A stretch of DNA of 64,000 bases from Myxococcota bacterium (GTDB taxonomy: Bacteria > Myxococcota_A > UBA9042): contig JBMOIG010000003.1 of the NCBI GenBank assembly GCA_049317445.1, positions 31,825-95,824 of the forward strand, read 5' to 3'. The notes under the pieces were generated by a model that was not told the origin of the DNA, made no database searches, and saw nothing but the letters and a program-made list of their open reading frames with translations. Shown piece by piece: positions 1,270 to 57,454 of this stretch; position 1 is the first letter of the stretch, and each line of letters starts with the position of its first letter. The translations under genes and the position numbers were made by a program.

Positions 1270-1272
1270 TCG

Positions 1273-1782: not shown

Positions 1783-1788
1783 CGACGG

Positions 1789-4338: not shown

Positions 4339-4402
4339 GCGGCGAGTCTAGCAGCGCTTGCGTCGCGTGGCACGTTGTCGGCGGGCGGAACTGCGGGTGC
4401 GG

Positions 4403-37024: not shown

Positions 37025-37027
37025 CGC

Positions 37028-37240
37028 CTAGCCTTCGCTGCCGTCGCCAGTCGCAACCTTCTCGGTCACCACCGACTCCTGGTAGTACTCGCTGGTGTGC
37101 TGGCGGGTCGACACGACGCCCAGCGCCAGCTCGATCTCGCGGGTCAGGCGCTCGCACTCCGGCCCCTTGAGGCCCACCACCTTGATCGAGACTTCCCCGT
37201 TGTCATCGATGGTGAATTCGATCTCACGACGCGTGGCCAT
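37028..37240 (-). CDS. DUF2997-like small protein
   Basis: 70 aa, MATRREIEFTIDDNGEVSIKVVGLKGPECERLTREIELALG. This fits the DUF2997 pattern EIEF.I..DG.V...V.G.KG..C..LT..IE.ALG. Confidence 0.55.
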   Translation of the reverse strand: MATRREIEFTIDDNGEVSIKVVGLKGPECERLTREIELALGVVSTRQHTSEYYQESVVTEKVATGDGSEG

Positions 37241-37249
37241 TCTTGCCTC

Positions 37250-37660
37250 CTACTCGCTCCAAGAGGCCACCTTCAGGTGGATGTGGTTCTCTTCGTCCAC
37301 CTTCTCTTCCTCGAGCGTGTACCCCCGCTTCTGCACCTCTTCCTTGACGGTGTGGTAGGCGTAGCGCTGGTTGATGCGACGCGTGAACTCGTCCTGATTG
37401 AAACCGGCCGTCATCTCGACGAATTCCCAGTCGGCCACGAACGTGACCAGGCCGGTCTCCGCGTTGACGTTGACACCGATGTCGTACGTCTTCGACGCGT
37501 GGATGACCATCTGTGCCTGCGTCTTCTGCCCCAGATAGCCCTTGACGTGCACCAGCTGCTCGGCTTGGGCGCGCGTATAGGCGAACCCCAGCTCTTTCAA
37601 CACGAGCTCCAGGCGCATCAGGTTCTGGATCTTGGTCTGGACCGTCGTGAAGTGCGACAT
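37250..37660 (-). CDS. DUF1257-like protein
   Basis: 136 aa. The N-terminus MSHFTTVQTKIQNLMRLELVLKELGF matches the conserved MSHF(S/T)T(I/V) start of DUF1257 family members. Confidence 0.55.
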   Translation of the reverse strand: MSHFTTVQTKIQNLMRLELVLKELGFAYTRAQAEQLVHVKGYLGQKTQAQMVIHASKTYDIGVNVNAETGLVTFVADWEFVEMTAGFNQDEFTRRINQRYAYHTVKEEVQKRGYTLEEEKVDEENHIHLKVASWSE

Positions 37661-37675
37661 GCAGGGCTCCTCGCG

Positions 37676-39337: not shown

Positions 39338-39413
39338 GACCGGCTTCTCCTGCGGCACGATGGCGACTCGGTCAGGCGCGTTCGGCCCGTCCGTACCGCC
39401 GTTCAGTTCCACG

Positions 39414-41351
39414 TCACGGGATAACGTCGCCAGGACCATCAGCGCCCAGGTCGTGCCTGAGACCGACGACCATGCGCTCCTGCTCGATCAGGTCCTGCGC
39501 CAGCACGATCGCGATGTCGTTCATCATGTCGATCGCCTCGCCGGTCTCGGACTTCTGCCCCACGCCCGACTTCTCGAGCTGCTGGGCGTACCGGCGCACC
39601 AGAATCGCGTTCGACTTCGATGCCGCCACGGCGTCGACCAGCGCTTCGAATGCCTCGACCGTCTGCGGCGATACGCTGGCCTTGACTTCGGTCGTCGCCA
39701 ACACCTTCAGCTGGTCCTCGGACTCGCGCAGCTGCGCCTCCAACGACTCGATCTTCTTGAGATGCAGCGCCAGCTCGGCTTCCAGCTTCTTGCCATGGCT
39801 GCTGTCTGCCTGAACGGCTTCGAGCTTCAGCTCGGACTTCGCCAGGTCGCGCTGCAGCGTGCTCAGCTCTTCGCGCAGGCGCTCCGTCTCTCGGACCTTG
39901 GCCTTGAAGTCCGGGTGCTCGCTCACATCGACCAACGGCGCGGGCTTGCGCTCGGTCGCCTCGCGGCTCGCCTCGACCTCTGCCCGCAGGCCGTCGATCT
40001 GGCGGCTCTGCTGCAACAAGCGGTCGTTCAGCTCATCCACGCGGCGGGTGGCGGCGTGGTAGTCCTCGAGCAGGCGGCGCTTCTCGTGTTCGAGGTCGCT
40101 GATGCCGACGCCCATGCGGACCTGTCGGATCTCGATGTCCTTGTCGCGCAGGTCGATCCGCAGCTGCTCGATCAGCGATTCCTTTTCCTGAATCACTTCT
40201 TGCAGCAGGTTGATCTTGCGCTCCAGCCGATCGACGTCGCCGCCTTCGCGGTTGAACGAGGTCTGCAACGACTCGTTCTCGTCACGTGCCGCCCGCAGCT
40301 CGTACTCCAGCAGGTCCAGCTGCCGTTGCAACTCTTCGATCTGCCTATCTTTTTGCGTCAGACGCACCTTCAGGCCGCTCAACTGCTCGGTGGCCTCGGT
40401 CGCCTTCTCGCGCGCTGACCCGATCTGCTGCTCCAGCTCGGTCACGCGACGCTCAGCCTCGAAGGCATCGTCCTCGCGCTGCCGCAGCTCCCGGCGGGTC
40501 TCTTCCAGCGACCGGGTGATGACCTGATTCTGCTCCTTGAGCTTGACGTACTTGTCAGAAATACCTTCAAGTTCAACCGCATAGCGCATCGCTCGCGGCT
40601 CGCTCTCTTTGGCTTCCTTCTCTGCACGAGTTGCCCGGGCCTCGGCGTCGGCCAGCGCCTGTTCCAACGCCCGGACCTTGCGACGCAGCTCGGTCATCTC
40701 CGCGGCGTCGGCGACTGGAGCTCCTTGTCCGGTCGGATTGCGGGCGGGAACGACGGCGTCGCGCTGGCCGGTCTGCACGGTCGACCGAGGCGCTGCGGGC
40801 CGCGACTCGCCGCCGACCAGCTCTGCGGGCACCGGGGGAGCGCGGCGGGCGGTCGAAACGCCGGCTGCTTGAGCGGGAGGCGGCGCCGGCACGACGGCGG
40901 GCGACGAGCCAGAGGTCGAGGCGGACTGCGGAGCCTGCCGCGCCGCCACCGCAGCGGCGAGTCGAACGCTGTCGTCAGGGCGTAACCCGCTGGTCGGCAT
41001 GGCCTTCTGAGCCGGAGGCCGTGGCCGTTCCTCGCTGGCGCTACGGGAATCGCCGATCTCGCCTGACTTGGCGTGGATCTCCAGCACCTCGCCGCAGCGG
41101 ACGACGTCGCCCTCGCGGATGACCGCCCGTCGGGTGCGCTCGCCGTTGATGAAGGTGCCGTTCGACGATCCCAAGTCCTTGATGTAGTAGCCTTCTTCGT
41201 CCCAGCCGATGCGGCCGTGGTTGCGCGAGACGGTACTTTCCTTGGAGTAGACGCTTGACCCGGGGTTGCGCCCGATGGTGATCGGCTCGATGTCGGGCCG
41301 CAGCGGCAACTGCACGAGATTGCCGGTCACGTCGCGATACTCGAGGTACAT
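39414..41351 (-). CDS. FHA-domain protein with long coiled-coil
   Basis: The N-terminal FHA is ITIGRNPGSSVYSKESTVSRNHGRIGWDEEGYYIKDLGSSNGTFINGERT. About 400 aa of heptad-rich E/R/L/Q coiled coil follow. The internal start MYLEYRDV is taken. Confidence 0.7.
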   Translation of the reverse strand: MYLEYRDVTGNLVQLPLRPDIEPITIGRNPGSSVYSKESTVSRNHGRIGWDEEGYYIKDLGSSNGTFINGERTRRAVIREGDVVRCGEVLEIHAKSGEIGDSRSASEERPRPPAQKAMPTSGLRPDDSVRLAAAVAARQAPQSASTSGSSPAVVPAPPPAQAAGVSTARRAPPVPAELVGGESRPAAPRSTVQTGQRDAVVPARNPTGQGAPVADAAEMTELRRKVRALEQALADAEARATRAEKEAKESEPRAMRYAVELEGISDKYVKLKEQNQVITRSLEETRRELRQREDDAFEAERRVTELEQQIGSAREKATEATEQLSGLKVRLTQKDRQIEELQRQLDLLEYELRAARDENESLQTSFNREGGDVDRLERKINLLQEVIQEKESLIEQLRIDLRDKDIEIRQVRMGVGISDLEHEKRRLLEDYHAATRRVDELNDRLLQQSRQIDGLRAEVEASREATERKPAPLVDVSEHPDFKAKVRETERLREELSTLQRDLAKSELKLEAVQADSSHGKKLEAELALHLKKIESLEAQLRESEDQLKVLATTEVKASVSPQTVEAFEALVDAVAASKSNAILVRRYAQQLEKSGVGQKSETGEAIDMMNDIAIVLAQDLIEQERMVVGLRHDLGADGPGDVIP

Positions 41352-41551
41352 GGGATCGCGCCTCCAAGCGTACGGCAACCCGGCTCGCGAAACGGCGGCA
41401 AGTGGCGCCACTTCGGCACGGACAGACCACGACGCAGGGGGTCGATTCTAGTCTGAGCAGAGGCGTAGCGGCAAGGGGAACGGGACGCCGGACAACCGCC
41501 CAAGCGCGGGGAGTCGGTGACTTTTCCCGATCGCGCTGCGTCCAGATCGCG

Positions 41552-42355
41552 TCAGCGCCCCGGGCGCCGCAGCAGCTTGAGCCGCTGTGCCGCGCGTTGG
41601 CCCAGCTCGGTCCCCGGCCAAGTGCGCGCCAGCTGGTCCAGCACTTCCGCGGCCCCCTTGTCGTCGCCCAGCTGCAGGTACGTCAGCCCCAACTTGTAGA
41701 GAGCGTCGGGAACCTTGTTCCCTCTGGGATACGTCTGCGCGACTCTCAGGAAGGTCTGCGCCGCCGCCAGCCACTGCGACTGCGCATACCAGCTCTCGCC
41801 GACCCAATACAACGCGTTGTCGGCAAGCTCGTGCCGTCCATGCCGCAACACCATCTCGTCGAACAGCGCGCGTGCGGCGTCGTGCTGCCCTTGGTCCAGC
41901 AGCGCCTTGGCCTCTGCGTAAAGTGCCACCGCGGGATCTGCTTGCGACTTGCGGACTTCCTGCGGAGCTGGCTCTCCCGCAGGTCCCGATGCAACCACGA
42001 CCGGCTTGGCGACGGCAGGGACAGCTGCTGCTGCCCGAGTCTTGCCGTGGTGCCCGGCTCTTCCGGCGGGCTGCACGCGCACGGTCGGCACCGCGGGCAT
42101 CCAGGCGTCGTCGCGCCGGGCCCGCGCCACGCGCTCGGCGTCCACCTGCTCCTCGACCATCACCAGACGGTCGCGGACCTCAGCAAACTGCAGCCGCTCC
42201 GCCGCTCGGTTGCGCTTCATTTCGACGATCTCGCCGCGGACCTCACCCAGCTCGGTCTCCAGCTGCGTGACCCTGGCACCAGAGCAACCGGACATCGCCG
42301 CGGCTGCTCCGAGGATCCCCAGCAGGATCGAGAGGTTGAATGAGAACCGGTCCAC
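41552..42355 (-). CDS. TPR-repeat periplasmic protein, YbgF/CpoB-like
   Basis: An N-terminal signal is followed by an MSGCSG lipobox-like segment and a coiled-coil. The C-terminal TPRs are ALYAEAKALLDQGQHDAARALFDEMV...NALYWVGESWYAQSQW...ALYKLGLTYLQLGD. Confidence 0.55.
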   Translation of the reverse strand: MDRFSFNLSILLGILGAAAAMSGCSGARVTQLETELGEVRGEIVEMKRNRAAERLQFAEVRDRLVMVEEQVDAERVARARRDDAWMPAVPTVRVQPAGRAGHHGKTRAAAAVPAVAKPVVVASGPAGEPAPQEVRKSQADPAVALYAEAKALLDQGQHDAARALFDEMVLRHGRHELADNALYWVGESWYAQSQWLAAAQTFLRVAQTYPRGNKVPDALYKLGLTYLQLGDDKGAAEVLDQLARTWPGTELGQRAAQRLKLLRRPGR

Positions 42356-42433: not shown

Positions 42434-42805
42434 TCAAGAATTCCGCGACACGCCGCGTCGCAATCGCCCCCAGCCGACCCTGAGCGCGGGTGCGACGCGG
42501 GCCCATGCCAGACCGGCCGATCGCACCGCTGCCCCGGAGAGACCTGACGCGGGCACCGGCAACGTGACGGCGCCCAAGCGCAACTGCGCGACTCGCCCCA
42601 GCACGGCCGAAGCGGCGACCGGCGTGTCGGCCGTCGCACGCGTGTCGCCTCGGGTCTGAAGCACGCCCTGCCCCAAGGACGCGACGCGATGGACCCACAC
42701 CTCACCCGGCCGAACCCCCAGCGTGGCCACAAGGTCCCCGCGCCGCAGGTCCTCAAAAGGCACGCGCACAACCCCCGCCTGCCACGGCGCGGCCAGCGGC
42801 CACAT
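42434..42805 (-). CDS. S26 signal-peptidase-like serine protease (candidate leader peptidase)
   Basis: SGRSMWPLA resembles the GDSMxPTL catalytic Ser box. RRGDLVATLG and HRVASLGQGVLQTRGDTRATADTP resemble the KRVIGLPGD and GDNRxxSxDSR boxes. The internal start at 42805 is assumed, because the 176-aa ORF would overlap the rSAM gene. Confidence 0.45.
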   Translation of the reverse strand: MWPLAAPWQAGVVRVPFEDLRRGDLVATLGVRPGEVWVHRVASLGQGVLQTRGDTRATADTPVAASAVLGRVAQLRLGAVTLPVPASGLSGAAVRSAGLAWARVAPALRVGWGRLRRGVSRNS

Positions 42806-42840
42806 CGACCGTCCCGACAGGGTGTACCAGTCGATGCGGG

Positions 42841-44040
42841 TCACTTCGCCCCTCCCGACGGTTCCTTGACGCGACGCCCGCCGCCTCGCTGCGCGCGGTG
42901 GATGGGAAAGACGAACTGGTCGGGGGGGGGGCCGTCCTCGCCGCCTTCGGGAACGGTAGCCCATTCTTCTGCGGTGAAGGGGGGGCTTCCGGTCGCTTCG
43001 AAAGCCAAGAGTCGGGCGCGCGTCTCAGCGTGAAAGGAGTCCGGGGCCTTGCGGAAGTCCCCACTGCGCTTGAAGGCTTCACCGGGGCAATAGAAGCACA
43101 CGGAATTGCCGACGCAGGAGAGACAGCTGGAACGGTCCTTGTTCGTCCACGCGAGGATCTCCCGACGGATGGGCGAGTTGCGCCAGATATCGCCGAACGT
43201 CTGCTCGCGCACGTTGCCCAGCGCCATGGGCCAGGTCACGCAGGGCCACACGCTGCCGTCCGGAGCAATGTAGGCAGCCGTCCGCCCCGCCCCGCAAGTG
43301 TTTTGGTCCTCAAGGTCCTGCATCCGCGGTGGAGGCTGCGGCCCCGTGAGGCCGAGCAACTGCCTCATCGACGTCCTCACCCTCACGAGATCAGCTTCGC
43401 TTAACTGAAGCGTGTCCAGGGTGCTTGTGGCCGAATGGTCGCGACGGATCGTTCCGTTGAGAGTCACCTCACACCCGTCCGCGGCGAACCGGGCGTACAA
43501 TTCCTCCATCTCGTCCAACGTGTTCGCCTGCACGGTCATCGAGACGCGCACCGCCAAGCCCGCCTGACGCAGCAACTGGATCCCTTCCAGCGTTCGCAGG
43601 AGTGCCCCTGGGCGGCGCACAAAGGCGTCGTGAATCTCCGGCCGCAGCGAGTAGACGCTGACGTCGACTCGCGACGTGCGACTTCGCGCCAGCAGAGCCA
43701 CCCGCTCTTGCGTCAGGTTGCCAGCGTGCGTCTTGACCCGATTGACAAACCCGAGACTGGCCGCGAGCTCCAAGGCCTCATCCACATCCGGACGGAGAAA
43801 CAACTCCCCGCCGCTCCAAGTGAGGATCAGGACTCCGGCGTCGCGAAGCTGATGCAGCAGGCCCCGAAGCTCGTCAGGCTTCATCTCGGGCCAGTGCTTG
43901 TCGTCCAGATAGCAGTGCACGCAGTCGAGGTCGCAGCGATACGTGACGTCCAAGTGGGCGTGCAGCGGCATGTCGGCACGCCGATAGGCCCGAACCAACG
44001 CTTGGTCCGCGCCTCCTGAGTCGTCGAGCAGGTCAGCCAT
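42841..44040 (-). CDS. radical SAM / SPASM-domain peptide-modifying enzyme
   Basis: The CX3CX2C motif is LDVTYRCDLDCVHCY. The SPASM twin-Cys region is CGAGRTAAYIAPDGSVWPC...CLSCVGNSVCFYCPGE. The ATG overlaps the upstream gene stop as an ATGGCTGA coupling. Confidence 0.8.
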   Translation of the reverse strand: MADLLDDSGGADQALVRAYRRADMPLHAHLDVTYRCDLDCVHCYLDDKHWPEMKPDELRGLLHQLRDAGVLILTWSGGELFLRPDVDEALELAASLGFVNRVKTHAGNLTQERVALLARSRTSRVDVSVYSLRPEIHDAFVRRPGALLRTLEGIQLLRQAGLAVRVSMTVQANTLDEMEELYARFAADGCEVTLNGTIRRDHSATSTLDTLQLSEADLVRVRTSMRQLLGLTGPQPPPRMQDLEDQNTCGAGRTAAYIAPDGSVWPCVTWPMALGNVREQTFGDIWRNSPIRREILAWTNKDRSSCLSCVGNSVCFYCPGEAFKRSGDFRKAPDSFHAETRARLLAFEATGSPPFTAEEWATVPEGGEDGPPPDQFVFPIHRAQRGGGRRVKEPSGGAK

Positions 44041-44875
44041 CGCGGAGACCCTGAACGGTGGACGCCACGACCTCTCGCGAATCTTTCAGACAATGGTCAA
44101 GCCAAGCGGGCGGACAATCTTGCGTCAGATTCAGCACGTGTTCCAGCATCAGATTCCGGGTCGCACCACCGGCGAAGACGGCGTGCGGGATGAGGGAGGC
44201 GAACCGCTCGGCTTGGGCGACAGGGCGCAAGCCCGTCACGGAACGGTCGGGCGAGAGGATGCTCAGCCCCCCAACCGGCACCACCCAAGGCGCAATGGCG
44301 CGGGGCCGCCGCAGCTCCACGTGGCGCCACACGACCCAGCCGTCGTCTCCAGGCACCAGAAAGGCGTGCTCGTCGTGAAGGGCTTGGTCGGGAAACCGTC
44401 GGGAGAGTGTGGTCTTTCCCGCGCCGCTGTACCCTGCCACCACCCACACCCTACCCTCATAGGCCAGCGTGGCGGCGTGCAGGACCACCCCTCCAGCGCG
44501 CAGTACTTTCGCGTAGGCGACCCCAAACATCGCCTCCAGCGTGGCCGTGGGTCGACTGCGCGGGTCGTCGTCGTCGGTCGCAAGAGTGGCGGTGCCGGTC
44601 CCTGTTCGCCAATCGACCTGGACCAAGGCGTGCGCCGAAAGAAAGGCAAAGCCATCGTCGTCGAAGCGGGTGAAGCGAAGTCCGGCGTCGCTGCGGGGAG
44701 TGCCGTCGAGTGTGGCGTTCAGCTTGATGTCGGCAGGAAGGCCGGGCGGGTCCAACCAGCCGGTTCGGCCGGAATCGCGGCCCAGCGGAAAAATGACGGC
44801 CACCCGGAAGGGACCAAAGGCAGCCGTCGGGCAGTCCATCGAAGGTCCGCCACTGCGCCGAGTCGGAAACGTCAT
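44033..44875 (-). CDS. HPr kinase C-terminal-like P-loop protein (HprK-related)
   Basis: VVAGYSGAGKTTLS with a preceding GGVVLHAATLAYEGRVWV matches the HprK_C fold. There is no N-terminal HprK domain. The protein is 280 aa. Confidence 0.55.
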   Translation of the reverse strand: MTFPTRRSGGPSMDCPTAAFGPFRVAVIFPLGRDSGRTGWLDPPGLPADIKLNATLDGTPRSDAGLRFTRFDDDGFAFLSAHALVQVDWRTGTGTATLATDDDDPRSRPTATLEAMFGVAYAKVLRAGGVVLHAATLAYEGRVWVVAGYSGAGKTTLSRRFPDQALHDEHAFLVPGDDGWVVWRHVELRRPRAIAPWVVPVGGLSILSPDRSVTGLRPVAQAERFASLIPHAVFAGGATRNLMLEHVLNLTQDCPPAWLDHCLKDSREVVASTVQGLRDG

Positions 44876-45033
44876 GTCAGGTCAGGAGGAGCACCTTCAG
44901 GGTCCTTGCACACAACCGCGCTGGAAAGCAGTGCCGACAAGGATTCCCCCAGAGTCTCGATCGCGGGCGCAACATAGGGCATGAGGGCGTTCTTCTCCGC
45001 CTCACCTGTATTCAATTCGCGTTCGTTCTCCAT
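44872..45033 (-). CDS. candidate RiPP precursor peptide (53 aa)
   Basis: The peptide is MENERELNTGEAEKNALMPYVAPAIETLGESLSALLSSAVVCKDPEGAPPDLT. A strong RBS GGAAGGAG lies 5 nt upstream. Its stop overlaps the HprK-like start as ATGA. There is a single Cys near the C-terminus. Confidence 0.4.
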   Translation of the reverse strand: MENERELNTGEAEKNALMPYVAPAIETLGESLSALLSSAVVCKDPEGAPPDLT

Positions 45034-45102
45034 CGCTACTCCTTCCACCTTGTGGGCCCACAGTGTATCCGAAGACCGATCCGGCACAAGCATCCGTCGG
45101 GC

Positions 45103-48100
45103 TCAGTACACCAGAACCAAGACACCTGGCGTCGTGACGCTGCCCACCGTGGTGTCGGCCGAACCCACAAGCATGTCAGGACGACCGTCGCCGTTGAAGT
45201 CTCCGATGCCGACGACGGAGGTGCTGACCATGGCCTTCGTGCCGACTCCCCAGCCGAGCGAGCCTGGAGCAAACGGGTTGCCGAAGACAATGTCGTCAAA
45301 TGCGTAGCCGCCCGCTCCCTGAAGCGCGGGGACCTGCATGGCATACCGGACGGTCAACAGCGCCGTGTTGGTGGGTCCGTAGGCCGGCGACCCGTTCACG
45401 ATGTCGGTCAGACCGTCGGGATGGTCACCAAACGTCCCAAGCGAGGACAGGCCTTGGACCCACGCCCGTACGGCTCCGCCCAGAGGATGGGTGCCAAGCG
45501 CCGGAGCGTTCGCAACCGGCGTCAGCGCCATGGAAACGCGTTTTCCGACATAGGAGGCAAGCTTCGACCCGCAGATCCAGTAGATCGCGCCGACGGTCCC
45601 AGAGACCTGATGGCGGACGACCAAGTCGCTGAGGGCGTCGCCATCGATGTTGGCCGCGTCCATCGCCGTGCCGCACGCGTTGATGCCCACATTGGAGTCG
45701 CACAGAACCCGAACCGTCGACCCGTCGTCGGGCGCGGTGCCGAGTTGATCGCGCGTCAGCAGCACTTCGACGTCGCCGCTGAACGTCCGGCCGGGCACGA
45801 TGTGGACCTGCTGGGGCGTGGCGTACTGCGAGATTGCGAGGTCGTCGAACTGCGGCCCCTGGCCCCCGTTGTCCGGGAGCACGTTGCTGAGTCCTACCAG
45901 TGAGTAACCAAACAGCACGTTGCCGACGCTATCCGTCAGGTGGATCGTCATGATGTTGTTGGCGGCGCGGTCGGCCGGGAGGTTGCCGTCGATGATGACC
46001 TGCTTGTCCGTAGTCCAAGCGGAGTTGCCCGGGATCACGAACACCCGGTCATACAGAACGCTTCCGTACGTAGCTGACGTGACGACGATCTCAGCGGTCG
46101 GCAGGCCAGTGACGGGGTGCAAGTCTCCGTTGAAGCTGCGAATCGTGGTCAGCGCGCGGACACCCCACGCCGGCACGGATGCGATGCCTCTGAAGATGAC
46201 CTGCGGTTGAGCCGAGATCAGCTGCTTGTCACGGCCCAAGTACACGCGCACCTCGCGGGTGAACCCGGCACCCTGACCAGCTCCAATGACCAAGTCGTCG
46301 ATGCCGTCGCCGTTGACGTCGCCCGGCTGCAGCGCAGTGTTGCCGGCAAGTCCGAGCCCCGTACCCGGCAGGCAGACGTGATGCGTGCCGACTTGGCTGT
46401 CGAACGTCACTTCGGCGAGTGAACCGTCGGCGGCTGAGGGTCGGCCGTAGACCACGCAGGCGTCGAGGTCGATGCCGCCGCCCACGACAAAGTCGGACAG
46501 ACCGTCACCGTTCAGGTCGCCTGCCGCATACACGCGGTTGCGATACTCAGCGGTCTGGTACTTCGGGTCTGCCGTCGTGACCTTGACGTAGTGCAAACGC
46601 AGCGCGTCGGTCGAAAGGGCCGTCGAGACGTCCGAGTGATTGCCCGCAGCATCCACCGCGCGAATCGCGAAGTAATACTTGGAGATCCCACCGTCGGTCA
46701 GCGGGGCGAACTTGCAGAGGTCGCTGGCAGAACGCGGGTCCGGGCCTGAGATCTCGACTTGCTGCGTGACGCCCGCCTGAGCCGGAACGGGCAGTTGCAC
46801 ACCCGGAATGGCCTTGGCCTCGCAAGCCGCTTCGAACTCGGCAACGGTCGTGATCGCTTTGCGCGAGTACCGCACATCGTAGGCGGCTGCCGTCCCCGTC
46901 ATCCCATCGTCGCCAACGGCGGTGAAAGAAACGCGAGCGAGCGGACGCCGCGGGTTCAGGTCGCCGCTGGCGAACGGGTCCAGAACGACCTTGGCCGGGG
47001 CCTTCCAATCGACCTTGATGGTAACCGTGGCGACGGCCGTATTGCCCAAGGCATCGGCAACCTTCGCCGTGATCGTGTTGCTGGCATCCTCAGTGAGCGT
47101 CGCGAATTGAACCGGGACTTGGTCGGCCGCCGAATCGAACGTCAACGGCAGCTTCACCAAGTCCTGCGGCAGGTCGCCTGTGCTCTGGCCCACCGTGCGC
47201 TTGAGCTCGAGCAGCTCGCCACCCGCCAGACCGGCATCCTTGGCCTCGATCAGCAGGTGCAGCTGGTGGTTGGGCGTAGCGACCGACTGGTCGTCAGGCT
47301 GACCATACAGCGCGGTCGGTCCCGCCGGCGTGTCGAAGCCGAGCACTTGGCCCGCGATGAACGACACCGTGGGATTGGTCAGGTCGGCCTTGACGGTCAC
47401 CGCACCGCTGGAACCCTTGACCGCCGCGCCTTCCAGCGCGACGACCTCGGCCGAGAACGTATCACCATCCTTGACCTCCAAGGCAAAGGACGCCTTGGCG
47501 TTCACCGGAGCGGCCGACGCAACCGCGCTGCCATTCTTGCGCAGTTCGATCTTGTCAGGGGTGCCGCACGGACCGACAAACTCCGCGGTCACGGTCGGCT
47601 TCACGCTGGCGCAGTTCTGTCCAGGAGTCGGGCACGCCTGCGTGTTCAGGCCGCCGATAGGCAGCCCCTTGACCAACACAAGGCAGCCGCTGAGTTGAAC
47701 GTCGAAGCCTCGAGTGGCCACCGTCTTGTTGCCGTTGACGTCCACGCCGGTCAAGCGCAGCACGTAATGCGGCGTGGCGCCAAACGGGATCGTGACATCG
47801 ACCTTGGGCTCGACACCGTTCGGGTTCAGCACCTTGCCGCTGCCAACCTTCTCGTAGCCGGCGCAGTTGAGGAAGCTGGAATCGCAGTCGTCGCCCAATT
47901 CAAGCGTCCACGAGTCGGTGTCGACCGTGCCAAACAGGACGGAGACCTGATAGCCGGAAAGGGCGGGCGCGGCGTCGTCATTGTCGGTGAACGTCGCTCC
48001 CGGGCTCGGGGTCTGAATGCCGAGCTGCGGCGGCTCAGTATCGACCGTGATCTTTGCCGGACTGGTTGCGATGGTCGAGATGTTGCCGCAGACGTCGCGC

Positions 48101-51100
48101 AGGTCCGCTTGCAGTTCGCGTTGGCCTTGGGCGAGCAGGGCATCCTTGGCGTCCAGGAACTGGGCTTGGCCACCGACAAACTTCTCAGTCGCCTTGAAGA
48201 CGCCGCCGTCGCGAATGTTCACGTCCTGACCCTCGACGTCGGAGGCACTGCTGGTCACCAGAACGTCGAGCGGGTCGCCGACCAGCACCTTGGCCTTCGA
48301 CGGCCACGCAAACGTGCCATTCGGACTGATGGTGTTCACCATCATGTTGGGAAGGGTCTTCATCTCGCCGACATTGCCGACCGCATCGACTGCCGCTGCC
48401 GAGATCGCAATCTCGCCTTCGGCAGGGACCGTAACGACGACAGAGGCCTTTCCTCCGACCGTGTCGGCGGTGCCCTTGACCGAGCCGGCCAGCACCGTGA
48501 CCGACGCTTCACCCGTGGTGGTGACCTGGAAGGTGAACTTGCCGCCGGCCAGTCCCAAATCGGGTGTGCTCTGCAGGGCGTTGGACAGGCACAGTGCGGG
48601 CACTGCCGCGTCGGTAGGGGGCGCCAGCAGCTCGATGGACGGCGCGACCGTGTCAATCAAGATCGTCCGGTCCCGTCCGGCAGGCAGCGTCGCCACGAGT
48701 GACGGCGTCCAGGGAACTGTGGGCAGGAAGCTGCCCTCTGCGATGACGTGGTACAGTCCGTCGGGCAGCGAACTGACATTCACGATAGCCGTCGAGGCTT
48801 CGATCTTGCCCGTCGCGATGACCTTGTAGCCGGCGGTCGCGCACGCCTCGCCCGTCACGCCGGGCGAGTTGCTACAAATGCGCAGGGCCGAGCCATTGGG
48901 CAAGCCGAAGGTGAACACACCAATCGACTTCGCGGTGAGCTTGTTCCACGCCACTGCGCAAGTTCCGCTGACGCAAACGGCGTTGGCGCCACAGTCCGCC
49001 TTGACGGAGCACGACGCGGCAGGCAGCGGCAACGGCAGAGTCACACGAATCTCGGCACCGGCGCTCAGCACCTGCATCACCAGCGTCTTCGTCGCCGGAT
49101 TGCCGGCTGTGTCAGCACCTGAGAACACAAGCTTGACCTTGTAGCCGTCGGGCAGTGTCACGATGCCGAACGCGACCACCCCCACTTGGTCGTCGGAAAT
49201 GTTGGGAACGGCCGTCGCGGGATACGAGGCGTACTTGGTCCCATCGTCCTTGAACACGTCCACAACGACCGGCGCATCCTTCGGCAGGCCGGTGGCCTTG
49301 ACCTGAAGGTCAATCTGCATCCCTTCCACGTCCGGCAGCAAGTCATCCATGGCCAGCAACAAGGTCGCCGAGTCGCCGACCTTCACAGGCGATGCCAGAG
49401 CCAGAAACACCGGGGCCGTGCGGTCGACGGTGACCGTCACCGGCTGGGCCTGCGCCTTCTGGCCGGCCGCATCGGTCACCGTCGCGTCGAGGGTGCACGT
49501 CGAGCGGTCGATCAGCGAAATGTTGGCGACCTTGGCGGCGTTGGCCTTGGACTTGCCGAAATAGTCCTTTGCCTTGCCGGCGCAGGTGACCGTTACCTTG
49601 ACGTCGCGGCCATCCTCGACGTTGGTCAAGGCCAGATCGGTGGACATCAGGCAGTTCGGCAGGAAGGGAGTGCACGCCACGCTGTTCAGGTTGAACAACT
49701 GGCCGGTGGCGGGGAACACAAAGGCGATGCCGGGCTGGTCGGTCTTTCGCGTGACGACCAACGGCGCCGTGTAACCCTTCTTGGCTGGGGCGGAGCTGAC
49801 AGCGGCGCCGAACTGTACGGTGGTGTCGCCAGCCGCGAGACCCGTGACCTTGAACGTGTACTCACCCGGGGCGGTCTCCTGCACCGAGACCTGAGCCAAG
49901 GCGCCGTTGATCCACACTTCGGTTTGCGCGCCGGTGACCGGAATGGCCTCAACGCCGGTCGTCACCTTGGCGACGAACGTCATCTGGTCGAACGCGGTGA
50001 ACGCGGGTTGCGTGGGCAGGGTGAACACGACGTTGGGCAGGTCCGACAGCAGCGTGACCACCATGTCGTTCGGCAAGCTGGGGTTGCCAGAGCTGTCGGC
50101 ACCGGTGGGGCGCAGGGTGTTCGCGCCGGGCTGCAGGGTTACGCCGGGGAAGGTGACCTCGGTCTGGCCTGGGGCGACGTCCTGGCACCCGATGGCGATG
50201 CCGTTGGCCTCGAGGCAGACACTGATGGCGTCCCCGACACCAACCTTGACGTCGACCTGGAAACCCGGCACGGCAGGTGCGCTGTCTGCATCGGTCGCTA
50301 CGTTGAGAACCGCTTTGGACGGCTCGAGAATCGCGATCGTGGGACCTTGGGTGTCGACCTGCACGACCCGACTCGTGTCGCTGCACGCGGAATCGGTCGC
50401 AACGTTGCCAAACTGGTCGGTCGCGTTGAGCTGCAGAACGTAGATCCCGTCCGGCAGCGTCTGCGGCGGATTGCCGACGATTAGCGACAGCGGGGTGACA
50501 AGCAGGCCCGCCTTAGCCGTGCCCAGCGGGAACGGCCCGTAGGTCGCGCTGCCATCCTGAGCGGCGAGCGTGGCCGACACGACAGCGCCGTCGAGGTTCT
50601 CGGTCGACGCAGCGATGTCGATCTGGGGCTTGGTGGCGATGCTCGCTCCGGCCGGCGACAGGACGGTCAGGCAAGGGGGCGGCAAGGCGAGGACGAACGA
50701 AACCTCTGGCGAGGCAGACGGATTCGGCGCGTCATCCTTGGCCAGACAAGTGACCTGGCTGCCCAGCAGGTCGAAGTCGAGGGAGACGGGAATGGTGACT
50801 GTGCTGGCTTGCGTGTCCGTGTAGACCACAGAGCCGACCGGGTCGTTGCCGTAAGGGAAGCCCTCGCCGAACTTTCGGCAATACACGGAGATCTTGCTGT
50901 TCGCTGCGCCCTGCTGGAGGCCGACGACGACCGAGGTGTCGTACAGCGACGGCGTCGCCAGGTCTTGGTCATTCTTCGCCAGGAGGGTCTGGCCCGGCGC
51001 GGGGTCCTGAATGACGATCGCCGACTGGCCGGTGAACACGCTGTAGGCGACGTCCTTGGTAGACTTCAGCCCGCAACCATTGGTCGCGGTGATGGAAACG

Positions 51101-52215
51101 CTATAAGTCTTGGTGGTGTCAAACGAAAGCGGGAACGTGAACGCGCCGTCGATCTGAAGCGTGGCGGCCGCGACCTGAGTGCCATCAATCGAGAGGGCGA
51201 TCGCGTTGGCGTCAAAAGGCGTCATGGTGGTGGCCGTACCGACGAGGTCGGCCTGAACGCCGGGCTGCGTGGGATTCGTGTCGTCCGCAAGGGTCAGCTG
51301 GCCAGGCGTCGGCTGGCTGATGTCGATGACCGGAGCCTCGGTCGTCAGGGTCAGGGTCGCCTTGGCGGACTGACCGACGGGTCGTTGCGGCTGGGACTCA
51401 TCGATCACGTTCGCGACGAGCTCGACGGTCTGCGCGACCAGCCCCGTAGCTTCGGCAGCCAGCGTGACCTGAATCGGCGCCGACTGCCCTTGAAACAACG
51501 CGACCTTGGCCGACTGGCCCACGTTGCCGTCCGCGTCGAGGTACCCGATGTAGGCGTGCGTGCAGTCAGGCGTCTCGGTCGTGACGACGAAAGAAGCCTG
51601 GAATCCGGGCGTGACCGGGTCGTCGTCGACGGTCAGGCAGCCCGGCTCAAGCTGCAGCGCAGCCTTGCAGCCGTTCGCGCAGACCAGACCGATGCTCTTG
51701 GCCTCTTCTGCCATCGCTTCGCCGACCGTGACGCGCACGCCGACGCTCAGCGCATCCTGACACGGCACGTCCAGCTTGAGGAAGCGAGCTTCATTGGATG
51801 CAACGGGCGCGGACAGGCCGCTCTTCTTTCCGTCGACCAACAGCTCGACCATGGTGCCGTCGGGAACGTTGGTGGTCGTGGCGATGACGTCGACCTGCAC
51901 GCCGATGGCATCGAGGCCCGGGTACTTGTCGTCCTCGAACGTCAGGACGACGGACGAGACCGAACCCTCAAGCGCCATGCCCTTGCCGGTCTCGATCGAC
52001 AAGGCGATCGTCGGCGCAGGCGTCGTGTCGGTAGCGTCGCCCGCGAGGTCGGTGTCGGTGACGTCGCCGGGGAGGCACGCGTCCCCCGTGCAGCCGTCCC
52101 AGGTCGGGGGGCCCGATACTCTCTGGTCTGAGCAGCCCACCGCAAAGGCGACGACAGCTGCAATCATCAGGACGGGTCGGAGCCCACGAGCGATAGCCAT
52201 TTGCCTTCCTCCCAA
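45103..52215 (-). CDS. giant surface lipoprotein/adhesin with Ig-like, FN3 and C-terminal FG-GAP (integrin-alpha-like) repeats
   Basis: 2370 aa. The N-terminus MAIARGLRPVLMIAAVVAFAVGCSD carries a lipobox. It has many beta-sandwich-like repeats, an FN3-like unit (AYDVRYSRKAIT...YYFAIRAVDAAGNHS) and FG-GAP loops GDLNGDGLSDFVVGG, GDVNGDGIDDLVIGAG and GDFNGDGRPDMLVGS. Confidence 0.75.
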   Translation of the reverse strand: MGGRQMAIARGLRPVLMIAAVVAFAVGCSDQRVSGPPTWDGCTGDACLPGDVTDTDLAGDATDTTPAPTIALSIETGKGMALEGSVSSVVLTFEDDKYPGLDAIGVQVDVIATTTNVPDGTMVELLVDGKKSGLSAPVASNEARFLKLDVPCQDALSVGVRVTVGEAMAEEAKSIGLVCANGCKAALQLEPGCLTVDDDPVTPGFQASFVVTTETPDCTHAYIGYLDADGNVGQSAKVALFQGQSAPIQVTLAAEATGLVAQTVELVANVIDESQPQRPVGQSAKATLTLTTEAPVIDISQPTPGQLTLADDTNPTQPGVQADLVGTATTMTPFDANAIALSIDGTQVAAATLQIDGAFTFPLSFDTTKTYSVSITATNGCGLKSTKDVAYSVFTGQSAIVIQDPAPGQTLLAKNDQDLATPSLYDTSVVVGLQQGAANSKISVYCRKFGEGFPYGNDPVGSVVYTDTQASTVTIPVSLDFDLLGSQVTCLAKDDAPNPSASPEVSFVLALPPPCLTVLSPAGASIATKPQIDIAASTENLDGAVVSATLAAQDGSATYGPFPLGTAKAGLLVTPLSLIVGNPPQTLPDGIYVLQLNATDQFGNVATDSACSDTSRVVQVDTQGPTIAILEPSKAVLNVATDADSAPAVPGFQVDVKVGVGDAISVCLEANGIAIGCQDVAPGQTEVTFPGVTLQPGANTLRPTGADSSGNPSLPNDMVVTLLSDLPNVVFTLPTQPAFTAFDQMTFVAKVTTGVEAIPVTGAQTEVWINGALAQVSVQETAPGEYTFKVTGLAAGDTTVQFGAAVSSAPAKKGYTAPLVVTRKTDQPGIAFVFPATGQLFNLNSVACTPFLPNCLMSTDLALTNVEDGRDVKVTVTCAGKAKDYFGKSKANAAKVANISLIDRSTCTLDATVTDAAGQKAQAQPVTVTVDRTAPVFLALASPVKVGDSATLLLAMDDLLPDVEGMQIDLQVKATGLPKDAPVVVDVFKDDGTKYASYPATAVPNISDDQVGVVAFGIVTLPDGYKVKLVFSGADTAGNPATKTLVMQVLSAGAEIRVTLPLPLPAASCSVKADCGANAVCVSGTCAVAWNKLTAKSIGVFTFGLPNGSALRICSNSPGVTGEACATAGYKVIATGKIEASTAIVNVSSLPDGLYHVIAEGSFLPTVPWTPSLVATLPAGRDRTILIDTVAPSIELLAPPTDAAVPALCLSNALQSTPDLGLAGGKFTFQVTTTGEASVTVLAGSVKGTADTVGGKASVVVTVPAEGEIAISAAAVDAVGNVGEMKTLPNMMVNTISPNGTFAWPSKAKVLVGDPLDVLVTSSASDVEGQDVNIRDGGVFKATEKFVGGQAQFLDAKDALLAQGQRELQADLRDVCGNISTIATSPAKITVDTEPPQLGIQTPSPGATFTDNDDAAPALSGYQVSVLFGTVDTDSWTLELGDDCDSSFLNCAGYEKVGSGKVLNPNGVEPKVDVTIPFGATPHYVLRLTGVDVNGNKTVATRGFDVQLSGCLVLVKGLPIGGLNTQACPTPGQNCASVKPTVTAEFVGPCGTPDKIELRKNGSAVASAAPVNAKASFALEVKDGDTFSAEVVALEGAAVKGSSGAVTVKADLTNPTVSFIAGQVLGFDTPAGPTALYGQPDDQSVATPNHQLHLLIEAKDAGLAGGELLELKRTVGQSTGDLPQDLVKLPLTFDSAADQVPVQFATLTEDASNTITAKVADALGNTAVATVTIKVDWKAPAKVVLDPFASGDLNPRRPLARVSFTAVGDDGMTGTAAAYDVRYSRKAITTVAEFEAACEAKAIPGVQLPVPAQAGVTQQVEISGPDPRSASDLCKFAPLTDGGISKYYFAIRAVDAAGNHSDVSTALSTDALRLHYVKVTTADPKYQTAEYRNRVYAAGDLNGDGLSDFVVGGGIDLDACVVYGRPSAADGSLAEVTFDSQVGTHHVCLPGTGLGLAGNTALQPGDVNGDGIDDLVIGAGQGAGFTREVRVYLGRDKQLISAQPQVIFRGIASVPAWGVRALTTIRSFNGDLHPVTGLPTAEIVVTSATYGSVLYDRVFVIPGNSAWTTDKQVIIDGNLPADRAANNIMTIHLTDSVGNVLFGYSLVGLSNVLPDNGGQGPQFDDLAISQYATPQQVHIVPGRTFSGDVEVLLTRDQLGTAPDDGSTVRVLCDSNVGINACGTAMDAANIDGDALSDLVVRHQVSGTVGAIYWICGSKLASYVGKRVSMALTPVANAPALGTHPLGGAVRAWVQGLSSLGTFGDHPDGLTDIVNGSPAYGPTNTALLTVRYAMQVPALQGAGGYAFDDIVFGNPFAPGSLGWGVGTKAMVSTSVVGIGDFNGDGRPDMLVGSADTTVGSVTTPGVLVLVY

Positions 52216-52237
52216 ATCCCGTCGCGGAGCCCCTGCT

Positions 52238-52648
52238 CTAATCGGCCAAGCTGACGATGACGAGGCGTTCCAACAGCGATTGCAGGAAGGCGTCGACGTC
52301 CTCAGCGGCCCGCTCGGGCGAGACTTCGTACCGGTCGGTCAGCGTCGCCACGAGTTCATCGCGGCGACACTCCCCTTGCTTCAGCTTCTCGAACAATTCC
52401 ACGGCTGTGGTGGACGAGAGCCGATGAAATGCACGGTCGTCCGTGACCAGAAACACTTCGGGTCCGACAGCGCGGTGCGCCACCTGCGGGTGCAGTGCGT
52501 AACGAACTCGCGGGTCCCGACCGATCAAGGACGACCTCCAGAACAGCGTACAGAACCCCGGCACGGTGATGCTCCCGCGTCGGCAGACTCTCCCCGCGAA
52601 GCGCTGCGCCTGACCCGTCGCGCCAATGGACGATTCGGTGTGATGCAA
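52238..52648 (-). CDS. PqqD-family (RRE-type) peptide-chaperone-like protein
   Basis: EVFLVTDDRAFHRLSSTTAVELFEKLKQGECRRDELVATLTDRYEVSPERAAEDVDAFLQSLLERLVIV fits the PqqD pattern. The true start is probably an internal GTG near 52540. Confidence 0.5.
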   Translation of the reverse strand: MHHTESSIGATGQAQRFAGRVCRRGSITVPGFCTLFWRSSLIGRDPRVRYALHPQVAHRAVGPEVFLVTDDRAFHRLSSTTAVELFEKLKQGECRRDELVATLTDRYEVSPERAAEDVDAFLQSLLERLVIVSLAD

Positions 52649-55391: not shown

Positions 55392-55675
55392 GCCTCTCCG
55401 TCGGGGCGTGGGCACCCTGAAGTGGGGGCCTGTAGGGGTCGGACACAGTATAGCGTATTTGGTGGCGGGCGCATTCCCGGCCGGCCCGTCCGCACCGGCA
55501 ACCACCCGGCCGACCTGCGGTCCGACACAACCGGACGCTTGTCGCTCGCGCCGTCCTCGGTCCACAATGGCGCGCGTTGCAGGCGGGTGAGGGAAGGAGT
55601 AGACACCGCCAGACTCTGCGCACGCCCAAGCGAAGCGCAAAGCTGTGGATTCCACCTGAGCTGCACGGGAGGCAC

Positions 55676-57454
55676 ATGAACGGCCAAGCCAAGTCGAACG
55701 TCCTCGCGCGTCACCTGTTTCCGGCCGCGTGCCTGACCGCCGCGATGCTGCTTGTCGGCTGTGCGGAGTCGGGGCCAGCCGCGGTGGCCAGCAGCGGCTT
55801 GGAGCTGTGGTTCGCCAGCCTGACCTCACAAGGCTGTGCTGCCACCACCAACGGACAAGGGGTGGTCCCCGCGACCGTGACGACCCTTGCCGCCGTGCTG
55901 ACCCGACCAGACCAGACCCAAGAGACGTTCAAGGTGTCCAAGAGCACCGTGCAAGGCAAGGGCTCATGGCTGCTGACTGGCCTTCCCGTTGGCCAGGACA
56001 TCGACCTCGAGCTGTTCGGCTGCGACGCGTCCCATAAGGTCGTCTACTCGGGGCGGACCAATGACGTCGCCGTCGTTGACCAAGCCGAGACCGTCGCGCG
56101 CGTCTTTCTGGCTCCCGTCGCGCAGTTGGCTTGCACCGGCGGACCCGGCGGCTCCGCGACGCTGAAGGGCGCTCGCAGTCTCGCCGGGGCCGCAGCTTTG
56201 TTCGACGGTCAGGCCGTCGTCGCGGGCGGGATCAAGGAGTGGTCCTCTGCCGACAAGAGCGGCACCGCGTCGAGCGACGTTGACGTCTACGATTATCGCT
56301 TGGGCGCGTTCCGTCCGGCTCCCAGTTTGCTCGTTGGGCGCATCCAGCCACACGTCCATGCCCTGCCACCGCTGGCCGCCGACCCCACCATCCGCCGCGT
56401 GCTCGTGGCTGGCGGCGTGACCTCAGTCAAGCTGTTCGGCTCCACCGCGCTGCCCTCGCCCTTGATGGCTCCCGGCAAGGTCGACGAAGCCCTGCCGCCG
56501 ATTGCCGCTGAGGTGGTCGAGTTGAGCGATGCGGGCCAGTCCACGCAGTCGACGGCGGACATCGGCGTCGGCGCGCGACCGCTCAGTTCGTCGATTCATC
56601 TGGGGTCGGAGATCCTGTTCGCGGGCGGCGTCGACGATGCGGGGGCGCCGCTGGCGCAGGCGAGCCGACTGCCCAACCTGACCGACGTGGCCGCGGGCAT
56701 CGCCGTGCAAAGCGTGGGCGTGACCCTCTCGGCCGCGCGCGCGCGCCCGGCGCTGCTCAAATTCCCCGACGGCACGGTCGTGGTCTGGGGCGGTAACGCG
56801 TCGAAGGCCGTCGCCGACTTGGGCGAGGTGCTGGAGCCGGCCGGCACGACCGGCAAGGCCCTGACGATCACGGGAGACGCAGCGATCCTGGCGGATGCCA
56901 ACTTGGCCACCATCGGTCCGGTCGCCGTGGTCCTTGCCAGCTCCGCAGATACCCTCGCATTCCTCGTCGCCGGTGGCCTTCCGTACGCCCAGCCGATTCG
57001 CAGCGAGAATGCCCCCACCTACGTCGTCGTCGTCAGCCGCGCCTCCAAGTCGGCCGAAATCAAGCCGGTCGATCTGGGTGGCTCGGTGTTGCGGGCGGGT
57101 CTGGGCACGGTCGCCATCCGGCTGCCCAGCGGTCACATCCTGTTCGCGGGCGGTTTGGTCGCGCCGATGGACGTCCCCGACGTTTGCTCGACCGTTGGCG
57201 AGTGCATCCTCGACACGTTCACCCTCATCGAACCGTCAGTGGACGTGACCGCCGCCACGGTCGTGCTGACCGTTACCACCGGCAGCTTGGGTCAGCCCAG
57301 CTTCGGCATGGCGGCCGCGCCCCTGCCGACGGGTGCGCTGCTGGCTGGTGGACAACTCAGCGTCAGCACGGAGGCTGATGTGCTCGACGCCGTGGGTCAG
57401 GTGTTCGTGACCGGTCCGTCGGCGGAGCGGCAAGCGGTGCTCTGCGGGCCCTAG
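55676..57454 (+). CDS. hypothetical Gly/Ala-rich lipoprotein (possible beta-propeller)
   Basis: ATG at 55676 follows the RBS gggagg. MNGQAKSNVLARHLFPAACLTAAMLLVGCAES gives a lipobox. Repeated segments of the form ..AGG....G.. suggest repeated blades. Confidence 0.45.
   Translation: MNGQAKSNVLARHLFPAACLTAAMLLVGCAESGPAAVASSGLELWFASLTSQGCAATTNGQGVVPATVTTLAAVLTRPDQTQETFKVSKSTVQGKGSWLLTGLPVGQDIDLELFGCDASHKVVYSGRTNDVAVVDQAETVARVFLAPVAQLACTGGPGGSATLKGARSLAGAAALFDGQAVVAGGIKEWSSADKSGTASSDVDVYDYRLGAFRPAPSLLVGRIQPHVHALPPLAADPTIRRVLVAGGVTSVKLFGSTALPSPLMAPGKVDEALPPIAAEVVELSDAGQSTQSTADIGVGARPLSSSIHLGSEILFAGGVDDAGAPLAQASRLPNLTDVAAGIAVQSVGVTLSAARARPALLKFPDGTVVVWGGNASKAVADLGEVLEPAGTTGKALTITGDAAILADANLATIGPVAVVLASSADTLAFLVAGGLPYAQPIRSENAPTYVVVVSRASKSAEIKPVDLGGSVLRAGLGTVAIRLPSGHILFAGGLVAPMDVPDVCSTVGECILDTFTLIEPSVDVTAATVVLTVTTGSLGQPSFGMAAAPLPTGALLAGGQLSVSTEADVLDAVGQVFVTGPSAERQAVLCGP

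Follow-up and report, generated by a model that had tools for sequence, protein, structure and literature searches.

The stretch of DNA analyzed here, in the following called the window, comprises 64,000 nucleotides from a Myxococcota bacterium (GenBank assembly GCA_049317445.1, contig JBMOIG010000003.1, positions 31,825 to 95,824 of the forward strand). Our analysis concerns a string of genes on its minus strand that encodes a candidate cassette for a peptide made by ribosomes and modified after translation (RiPP) together with a giant lipoprotein. An earlier note on this DNA had described a collinear minus-strand string with a PqqD-like gene at its 5' end, followed by a giant gene and then by a 53-aa peptide and a set of genes around a radical S-adenosylmethionine (rSAM) enzyme. 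All of the genes that it named are present at 41.5-52.7 kb, where they form one unbroken string, listed here from its 5' end:

52238..52528, minus strand: PqqD-family chaperone (RiPP recognition element, RRE) of 96 aa, recognized by Pfam PF05402 and heading the string
45103..52200, minus strand: giant lipoprotein of 2365 aa with a lipobox, a long Ig-like array and a C-terminal FG-GAP (integrin-alpha-like) region
44872..45033, minus strand: 53-aa precursor peptide with a Shine-Dalgarno-like site and same-slot homologs in related loci
44033..44839, minus strand: ScmC-like, HprK-related P-loop protein of 268 aa with weak NCBIfam matches and homologs annotated as PF27840
42841..44040, minus strand: rSAM/SPASM enzyme of 399 aa, matched by Pfam Radical_SAM and SPASM
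42434..42844, minus strand: small soluble serine protease of the S24/S26 clan (Sec11/SipW-like motifs) of 136 aa, recognized by motif conservation and presumed to be a leader peptidase
41552..42355, minus strand: YbgF/CpoB-like tetratricopeptide repeat (TPR) lipoprotein, matched by TIGR02795 and carrying the lipobox MSGC

The short intergenic gaps that the earlier note had given were recovered as well, with 22-37 bp between the PqqD and giant genes and 69 bp between the giant and peptide genes, the other junctions being short or overlapping. No terminator- or promoter-like signal above chance was detected in a scan of 41-54 kb, a scan that was itself uninformative. For several genes, more than one start can be read. 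The PqqD open reading frame (ORF) extends over 136 aa (52238-52648), and an internal TTG gives a protein of 96 aa, which is the length of NCBI entry MFZ4577005.1 (from a 'Myxococcota bacterium' metagenome-assembled genome, MAG) and of the gene calls in relatives; this TTG is probably the true start. The giant gene can be read from a TTG (45103-52215), but the ATG at 52200, which gives 2365 aa as in protein P0125, is the more likely start. For the ScmC-like protein, an alternative ATG at 44875 gives 280 aa, and for the protease, the 136-aa form (42434-42844) is most likely, not the 176-aa ORF.

Conservation of the gene block

Related loci were collected from GTDB species representatives, and the 80 best-scoring of 582 motif-bearing rSAM/SPASM relatives were read and, together with loci already gathered, classified with hidden Markov models (HMMs) of the block proteins. 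A scan of genome contigs with an alignment of ScmC-like proteins returned no matches, and the rSAM alignment was used instead; a metagenome scan added only three further loci, which are short or duplicate. For the rSAM enzyme, about 65 orthologous clusters (42-57% identity) were found, below which the scores fall abruptly. The ScmC-like protein has few homologs, which form four clusters, and all of their contigs show, in this order, a PqqD gene, a gene for about 2360 aa, a small ORF and genes for ScmC, an rSAM/SPASM enzyme and a protease-like protein. Furthermore, the block is repeated in all five sampled rSAM contexts (95, 49, 44, 42, and 35% identity).

The arrangement PqqD-giant-peptide-ScmC-rSAM-S26-YbgF, here called type A, is shared by the window and about 20 loci from Myxococcota, 'Deltaproteobacteria' or 'Proteobacteria' MAGs, and the portion from PqqD to the S26 gene is present in the window and in loci L001, L003, L008-L012, L014-L018, L067, and L078. 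In a midpoint-rooted neighbor-joining tree of the rSAM proteins, all type A loci fall into one clade with two deep subclades. The block is kept as identity drops to 33-36% for the rSAM enzyme and to 30% for the giant protein, and it is kept next to at least four different upstream neighbors, the upstream genes encoding an amidohydrolase in L001, a cation efflux protein in L010, an InhA-like protein in L012 and a TPR protein in L094, with opposite-strand genes in L096. In the deep subclade, only the block and the YbgF-like and LysM genes persist.

The three central genes are still more constant. The order giant-peptide-ScmC was found in every Myxococcota-type relative of the giant, ScmC or rSAM protein, down to 25-35% identity, and among the 29 clusters of giant homologs that were tested or traceable, including those of L094, L095, and L096, none lacks the peptide and ScmC genes directly downstream. 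For 10 of the giant clusters, the longest contig is equal in size to that of an rSAM ortholog cluster. Moreover, where the upstream DNA is readable (18 loci), a PqqD gene stands ahead of the giant gene in 16 cases, and short gaps or overlaps occur throughout type A, the PqqD stop overlapping the giant start in L009. Orthologs of the giant protein are collinear with that of the window over about 2350 aa, with identities of 38-46% (main subclade) and 30% (deep subclade), and measure 2343-2401 aa in 26 of 29 clusters. Because the giant protein is collinear and constant in length, and because the block is kept across type A, the giant gene is no recent insertion but an old and fixed part of the block. 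As one of two options, the earlier note had proposed insertion of the giant gene into a RiPP operon. This option stands only in the sense of an ancient rearrangement that has become fixed: on our reading, the cassette was rearranged around the giant gene in one deep Myxococcota clade and was then inherited as one block.

About 70 of the 80 best-scoring loci (L013, L023-L093) are compact cassettes of a second kind, here called type B, which have the order peptide-S26-ScmC-PqqD-rSAM without a giant gene and originate from about 60 Acidobacteriota (Terriglobia) MAGs and from Thermomonas; those with readable context all fall into the other clade of the rSAM tree. Like the window, type B loci encode a homologous peptide, protease, ScmC, PqqD and rSAM/SPASM enzyme, with the same leader motif and a similar Tyr-Cys spacing in the peptide. 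Unlike in the window, PqqD abuts the rSAM gene, the exported protein is a TolB/BamB-like propeller protein of about 700 aa, and the peptides end in Ser. The comparison of synteny that the earlier note had suggested, asking whether PqqD directly adjoins the other cassette genes elsewhere, is therefore answered differently for the two types, since PqqD adjoins the ScmC and rSAM genes in type B and stands at the head of the giant gene in type A.

The exported protein of type B, here called protein X, is secreted, conserved and about 650-700 aa long, lacks an annotation and is encoded in 45 of the roughly 70 type B loci, directly upstream of the peptide or directly downstream of the rSAM gene and on the same strand in nearly all cases; some loci have two copies or larger versions. 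It has an FPAKY motif and a C-terminal AVQASQSAL, belongs to no NCBIfam family (e.g., L034:5989-8100 and L013:6224-8170), and its profile matches the TolB and BamB beta-propellers. A gene annotated as an uncharacterized nucleotidyltransferase (PF14907, E 1.4e-55, e.g., L034:11091-12290) is present in 31 of 70 compact loci and in none of the Myxococcota loci. In L013 (Thermomonas sp. HDW16, CP049872), a full lasso-peptide cluster at 187-5544 adjoins the compact cassette. It encodes a PqqD, a transglutaminase-like protease, an Asn-synthetase-like cyclase, a 62-aa precursor, a 363-aa ScmC/HprK-like kinase and a methyltransferase, so that this strain has two different ScmC-family genes within 6 kb.

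The precursor peptide, its chaperone and its enzymes

The 53-aa peptide of the window, MENERELNTGEAEKNALMPYVAPAIETLGESLSALLSSAVVCKDPEGAPPDLT, is preceded by the Shine-Dalgarno-like sequence GGAAGGAG, a good ribosome-binding site, and a homologous small ORF fills the same slot in every related locus. In every precursor, the leader contains (K/R)PYxxPx(V/I/F), and a Cys follows the Tyr of this motif after 18-22 residues. The layout is common to both types, with a variable polar N-terminus, the motif in the form (K/R)(P)YxxPx(V/I/F), a short helix-like stretch leading to L-x-S-(G)-C, and a tail that contains up to three more Cys beyond the first. The first Cys follows the Tyr at a distance of 18 in nearly all type B peptides (42 of 45), and a spacing of 19-22 prevails in type A (15 of 16 peptides). 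Ser is the last residue of all 45 distinct type B peptides, exactly two Cys follow the leader motif in 42 of them, and the consensus reads KKPYQKPAFRYERVFETMALSCGK...QCRFNRKxS. The C-terminus is variable in type A, where the cores vary greatly in length and Cys number. The YxxPxL motif of lasso-peptide leaders is the element that is read by PqqD-type RREs. Lasso precursors carry this motif in their leaders, and the motif of the cassette resembles it (PMC10368454).

The earlier note had made its proposal dependent on HMM support for the PqqD-like ORF, and such support was obtained: PF05402 matches residues 81-128 of the 136-aa ORF with an E-value of 1.2e-10 and 42 bits, compared to a gathering score of 23.4. 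The best NCBIfam matches are PqqD chaperones of the lasso and HPr-rel-A types, all under cut-off, as the scores for the named subfamilies illustrate (lasso B1, 25.1 of 70 bits; HPr-rel-A, 21.9 of 80; GeoRSP, 20.4 of 35). An HMM built solely from type A PqqDs finds the type B PqqD that abuts the rSAM gene, with E-values of 1e-6 to 1e-9, and gives no match to the lasso-type PqqD in the same Thermomonas locus. Because of this selectivity, because the small ORFs are homologous across types A and B, and because the Tyr-to-first-Cys spacing is near-constant within each type, the PqqD at the head of the string is the ortholog of the type B PqqD and, we conclude, the cassette's own chaperone. The conserved leader motif and its likeness to the lasso YxxPxL indirectly suggest that it would bind the leader of the peptide.

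The rSAM enzyme is matched by Pfam Radical_SAM (1e-18) and SPASM (8.6e-13), and C36, C40, and C43, together with C249, C267, C306, C309, C315, and C318 of the SPASM region, are invariant in 73 homologs. Its CxxxCxxC motif starts at residue 28-45 in all relatives and no N-terminal RRE domain is present; since the enzymes of this family leave no room for such a domain, which is common among peptide-modifying SPASM enzymes, they need a discrete chaperone. The best NCBIfam equivalog match reaches 113.8 bits compared to a cut-off of 500, and all 25 families listed score far below their cut-offs, so that the enzyme is not placed in the PqqE, MftC, AlbA, SkfB, ScmE/F, GeoRSP or NirJ/AhbD equivalogs (ScmE, 75.6 of 400 bits; ScmF, 56.6 of 400 bits). 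The same applies to the cassette as a whole, whose proteins, searched against the NCBIfam equivalogs, do not constitute a SynChlorMet (SCM), GeoRSP, HPr-rel-A, pyrroloquinoline quinone (PQQ), mycofactocin or sactipeptide system as curated.

The ScmC-like protein matches NCBIfam ScmC with an E-value of 2e-6 and 27.3 bits compared to a cut-off of 125, and HprK_rel_A/B are likewise under cut-off; PF27840 (ScmC) is, however, part of the precomputed annotation of its homologs, including the 95% identical P0001. The motifs GxSGAGK(T/S), LHA and (D/E)E(H/Y)AF are all invariant, and in a five-sequence alignment this applies to H121, G136-S-G-A-G-K142-T144 and E157, corresponding to the Walker A motif, His and acidic pair of HprK/P. 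An AlphaFold2 model with a mean predicted local distance difference test score (pLDDT) of 52 gave Foldseek matches exclusively to ATP-dependent phosphoenolpyruvate carboxykinase and HprK/P, with TM-scores of 0.2-0.4; residue-level conclusions from this model were rejected, as a pLDDT of 52 is too poor. In lasso clusters, HprK-like kinases phosphorylate a Ser of the precursor (PMC10368454), and the invariant C-terminal Ser of type B recalls the C-terminal Ser that these kinases target. By this analogy, the ScmC-like enzyme probably phosphorylates the peptide, although the C-terminus of type A peptides varies.

Across 84 homologs of the protease, the motifs G.SM.P, HR, GD and D are conserved to 90% or more; they presumably represent the catalytic residues, as assigned after Sec11/SipW. 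The protein of the window scores 18.4 bits against TIGR02228, the model for signal peptidases of the archaeal/ER type (cut-off 51.85, E 0.0016), and a type B ortholog reaches 50.8 bits against the same model (1.6e-13) and exceeds the threshold of Pfam Peptidase_S24 (26.2 vs 23.3 bits, 6.8e-6). No hydrophobic segment that could serve as a membrane anchor was detected, the maximum 19-residue Kyte-Doolittle mean being 1.1-1.5 in all seven proteins considered, and the protease is therefore taken to be a soluble leader peptidase rather than a true signal peptidase.

The giant lipoprotein

The giant protein has the lipobox FAVGC and is matched by Pfam FG-GAP (2e-12), Big_13 (8e-11), FG-GAP_3 (1.9e-6) and Big_3_3. 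Residues 1881-2013 match the propeller of integrin alpha-IIb with an E-value of about 1e-3, which is the sole relative of solved structure found by sequence. The earlier note had called it a giant adhesin; the lipoprotein signal, the Ig-like domains and the integrin-alpha-like FG-GAP region bear out its description, and the label 'adhesin' is a guess. In an alignment of 15 orthologs, conservation is even along the whole chain, and 29 Cys, including the lipobox Cys23, are invariant; the 28 others are even in number and spread out, which is consistent with disulfides. In L095 (8001-18950), four additional tandem copies of an N-terminal module of about 320 aa bring the giant protein to 3649 aa, and no PqqD gene is present in the 8 kb upstream.

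The second option of the earlier note was that the PqqD/rSAM machinery is functionally tied to the giant protein, for example because the latter is itself post-translationally modified. Accordingly, the giant protein could be modified directly by either the rSAM/SPASM enzyme or the ScmC-like enzyme, or by both, while it is still in the cytoplasm and not yet exported, with PqqD aiding recognition. The adjacency of the genes and its conservation speak for such a role, and there are precedents: SPASM enzymes can act on full-length exported proteins, as the sulfatase-modifying anSME does, and pairs of rSAM and lipoprotein genes exist in NCBIfam (TIGR04133), although the enzyme of the window scores only 49.9 bits against that model, compared to a cut-off of 425. 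However, a dedicated peptide with an RRE-type leader and fixed Tyr-Cys spacing is always present, and in the compact cassettes these enzymes and the peptide occur with no giant protein. Furthermore, no conserved leader-like YxxPx[ILV] motif was found in the alignment of giant proteins, which argues against an RRE-guided substrate, and the 28 non-lipobox Cys fit disulfides. We therefore regard direct modification of the giant protein as improbable. A functional tie between the machinery and the giant protein is favored by conservation, and its more specific form, a crosslinked giant protein, was not borne out.

Alternatively, the peptide might be consumed into a small cofactor or ligand, as in PQQ and mycofactocin biosynthesis, that is used by the propeller domain of the exported protein. 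The pair of PqqD and a PqqE-like rSAM/SPASM enzyme resembles those pathways, even though the PqqE and MftC matches are under cut-off, and both types of cassette are associated with propeller-containing exported proteins. However, the block contains no tailoring genes that are PqqB/C/F-like or MftD/E-like, the great variation of type A cores in length and Cys number would be unusual for a cofactor precursor, and Pfam and NCBIfam searches of the giant protein recognized no catalytic domain. Of all the explanations considered, we hold this one to be the least probable.

A candidate partner for the peptide

A precedent is provided by quinohemoprotein amine dehydrogenase (QHNDH), in which the rSAM/SPASM enzyme QhpD crosslinks Cys residues in the leader-bearing QhpC, the gamma subunit, and a dedicated protease trims the leader (PMC7876137). 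The qhp operon combines the maturation genes with those of large exported partner subunits, one of which is a beta-propeller, and the peptide becomes a subunit (PMC7876137). The block likewise keeps an rSAM/SPASM-peptide-protease set in an operon-like string with a large exported protein. It differs from QHNDH in its discrete PqqD, its HprK/ScmC-like protein and its S24/S26-type protease in place of a subtilisin, and further in having no heme or quinone signature and, as putative partner, a 2365-aa Ig-like/FG-GAP lipoprotein without a recognizable enzyme domain. Domains of QhpA/B/C, of the subtilisin QhpE, of the ABC exporter QhpF and of the flavoprotein QhpG were not found in the seven genes of the block. 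The likeness to QHNDH is thus one of functional logic, not of family membership.

Two other groups share further components with the block. SCM and other Haft-type cassettes (TIGR04249-04251, TIGR04352-04355, GeoRSP) have the same combination of an HprK-related/ScmC protein, PqqD and rSAM/SPASM, but their equivalog cut-offs are widely missed, the gene order is different, and in the block the giant gene splits PqqD from the rest; the literature searched gave nothing relevant on SynChlorMet/ScmC or the other Haft-type cassettes. Lasso clusters with HprK-like kinases (paeninodin type; BsfK, ThcoK, SyanK; PMC10368454) resemble the block in their discrete PqqD-type RRE, YxxPxL motif and kinase. The block has an rSAM/SPASM enzyme and an S24/S26 protease instead, and domain searches of its genes revealed neither a B2 transglutaminase-type protease nor an Asn-synthetase-like cyclase. 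Neither this cassette nor its link to a giant lipoprotein was described in the literature that our searches covered. The cassette belongs to the RiPP-like rSAM/SPASM-PqqD cassettes, and what is unusual about it is a stably conserved architecture hinting at a protein partner.

We lean, with moderate confidence, towards an uncharacterized RiPP-type cassette whose modified peptide acts together with the co-encoded giant lipoprotein. PqqD would bind the (K/R)PYxxPx(V/I) leader of the 53-aa peptide and present the core to the RRE-less rSAM/SPASM enzyme, which would crosslink the Cys at a fixed 19-22 residues past the Tyr, most likely, by analogy, through a thioether. The ScmC-like enzyme would contribute an ATP-dependent step, probably a phosphorylation as carried out by lasso-peptide kinases, and the protease would cut off the leader. 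The finished peptide would then serve as a small subunit or ligand of the giant Ig-like/FG-GAP lipoprotein, following the logic of the QHNDH gamma subunit. Among these steps, delivery of the core by PqqD, modification of a Cys at fixed distance by the rSAM enzyme and leader removal by the protease can be inferred with good support. The coupling of the product to the giant protein is the least certain step, which only the gene neighborhood suggests.

The compact cassettes permit a wider formulation, in which the whole family of ScmC-type cassettes, split in Myxococcota and compact in hundreds of Acidobacteriota genomes, is dedicated to large exported propeller-containing proteins and the rSAM-modified peptide is an obligatory small subunit, or a covalently or non-covalently bound ligand, of a non-enzymatic surface protein. 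The giant protein and X are both large and exported, both have a beta-propeller match by sequence, and both are encoded beside the precursor. We put this extension forward tentatively, as possible rather than probable.

Several observations weigh against this reading. Most of them fit a different explanation, namely that the cassette makes a free RiPP, such as a signal or an antimicrobial, and that the giant gene is a trapped envelope gene kept by vertical inheritance. In the main subclade, the upstream genes RseP-TsaB and the downstream genes LysM-FHA-AAA-DUF1257 are often syntenic too, and part of the conservation of the block is therefore plain vertical inheritance. Compact cassettes manage without a giant gene. 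The peptide has no signal sequence and no exporter is encoded among the block genes, which leaves its route to an exported lipoprotein unexplained, and no physical link to the giant protein is visible. Parts of the cassette can also be lost or moved: L094 (4344-14859), whose giant protein is 25% identical, has PqqD-giant-peptide-ScmC followed by an Hsp70/MreB-like gene, with no rSAM/SPASM or protease gene, and L095 and L096 have giant-peptide-ScmC-rSAM-protease with no PqqD within 6-8 kb. Furthermore, homology between the giant protein and X was rejected (BLAST E of at least 0.1, hhalign probability 0.1), so that their parallel is one of position and shared fold class only. Finally, the crosslink chemistry and the ScmC reaction are derived from family resemblance only, all equivalog cut-offs having been missed.

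Nevertheless, the block is kept where its flanks differ and where protein identity has dropped to 25-35%, its genes are tightly spaced or overlapping, including PqqD and the giant gene in L009, and most sister cassettes also keep a large secreted protein beside the peptide. As L094 lacks the rSAM and protease genes and L095 and L096 lack a nearby PqqD, the giant protein, the peptide and ScmC remain as the invariant trio, and no giant homolog was found that has parted from the other two. We therefore consider it rather unlikely that cassette and giant gene are independent units, and continue to favor a peptide that acts with the giant lipoprotein.

Other genes in the vicinity follow the block to varying degrees. 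The YbgF-like protein scores 93.1 bits against TIGR02795 (cut-off 90.1), and its gene directly follows the protease gene in most related loci of both type A subclades, though not in L094 and L096. A LysM gene comes after it in most type A loci, not in the window. Both genes, which are absent from L094 and L096, are possible further members of the system. A second YbgF-like match in the window, at 9.9-11.2 kb, was rejected as a Tol-Pal cluster and represents BamD. At 36296-41411, on the minus strand, the window encodes an FHA/coiled-coil protein (665 aa), an AAA ATPase (587 aa), DUF1257 and DUF2997 proteins, the latter assigned from gene calls in relatives, and a 242-aa protein; this string keeps synteny with the block only within the main subclade and is probably a separate conserved module. 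On the other side of the block lie, at 55577-57454 on the plus strand, a gene for a 625-aa protein with a lipobox-like N-terminus (LLVGC) that belongs to no NCBIfam family and, at 58465-63954 on the minus strand, a gene for an extremely Cys-rich protein of 1829 aa with CDGxDNDCDGxTDE-type repeats and no NCBIfam match.

Genome mining for RiPPs takes it for granted that RRE chaperone, maturase and precursor are encoded together and that the product is free. Here, the chaperone is stably split off by a 7-kb gene, and the peptide has just two invariant partners, a giant lipoprotein and an HprK-like enzyme; RiPP finders that search a limited span of DNA can miss or mis-split such clusters. Should the peptide indeed serve the giant protein as a subunit or ligand, the logic known from QHNDH would have a second example, in a structurally very different setting, and a role would be assigned to a widespread uncharacterized cassette family. 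If, moreover, the ScmC family as a whole serves exported propeller proteins, the logic of a RiPP as a protein subunit would extend to the architecture of the bacterial surface.

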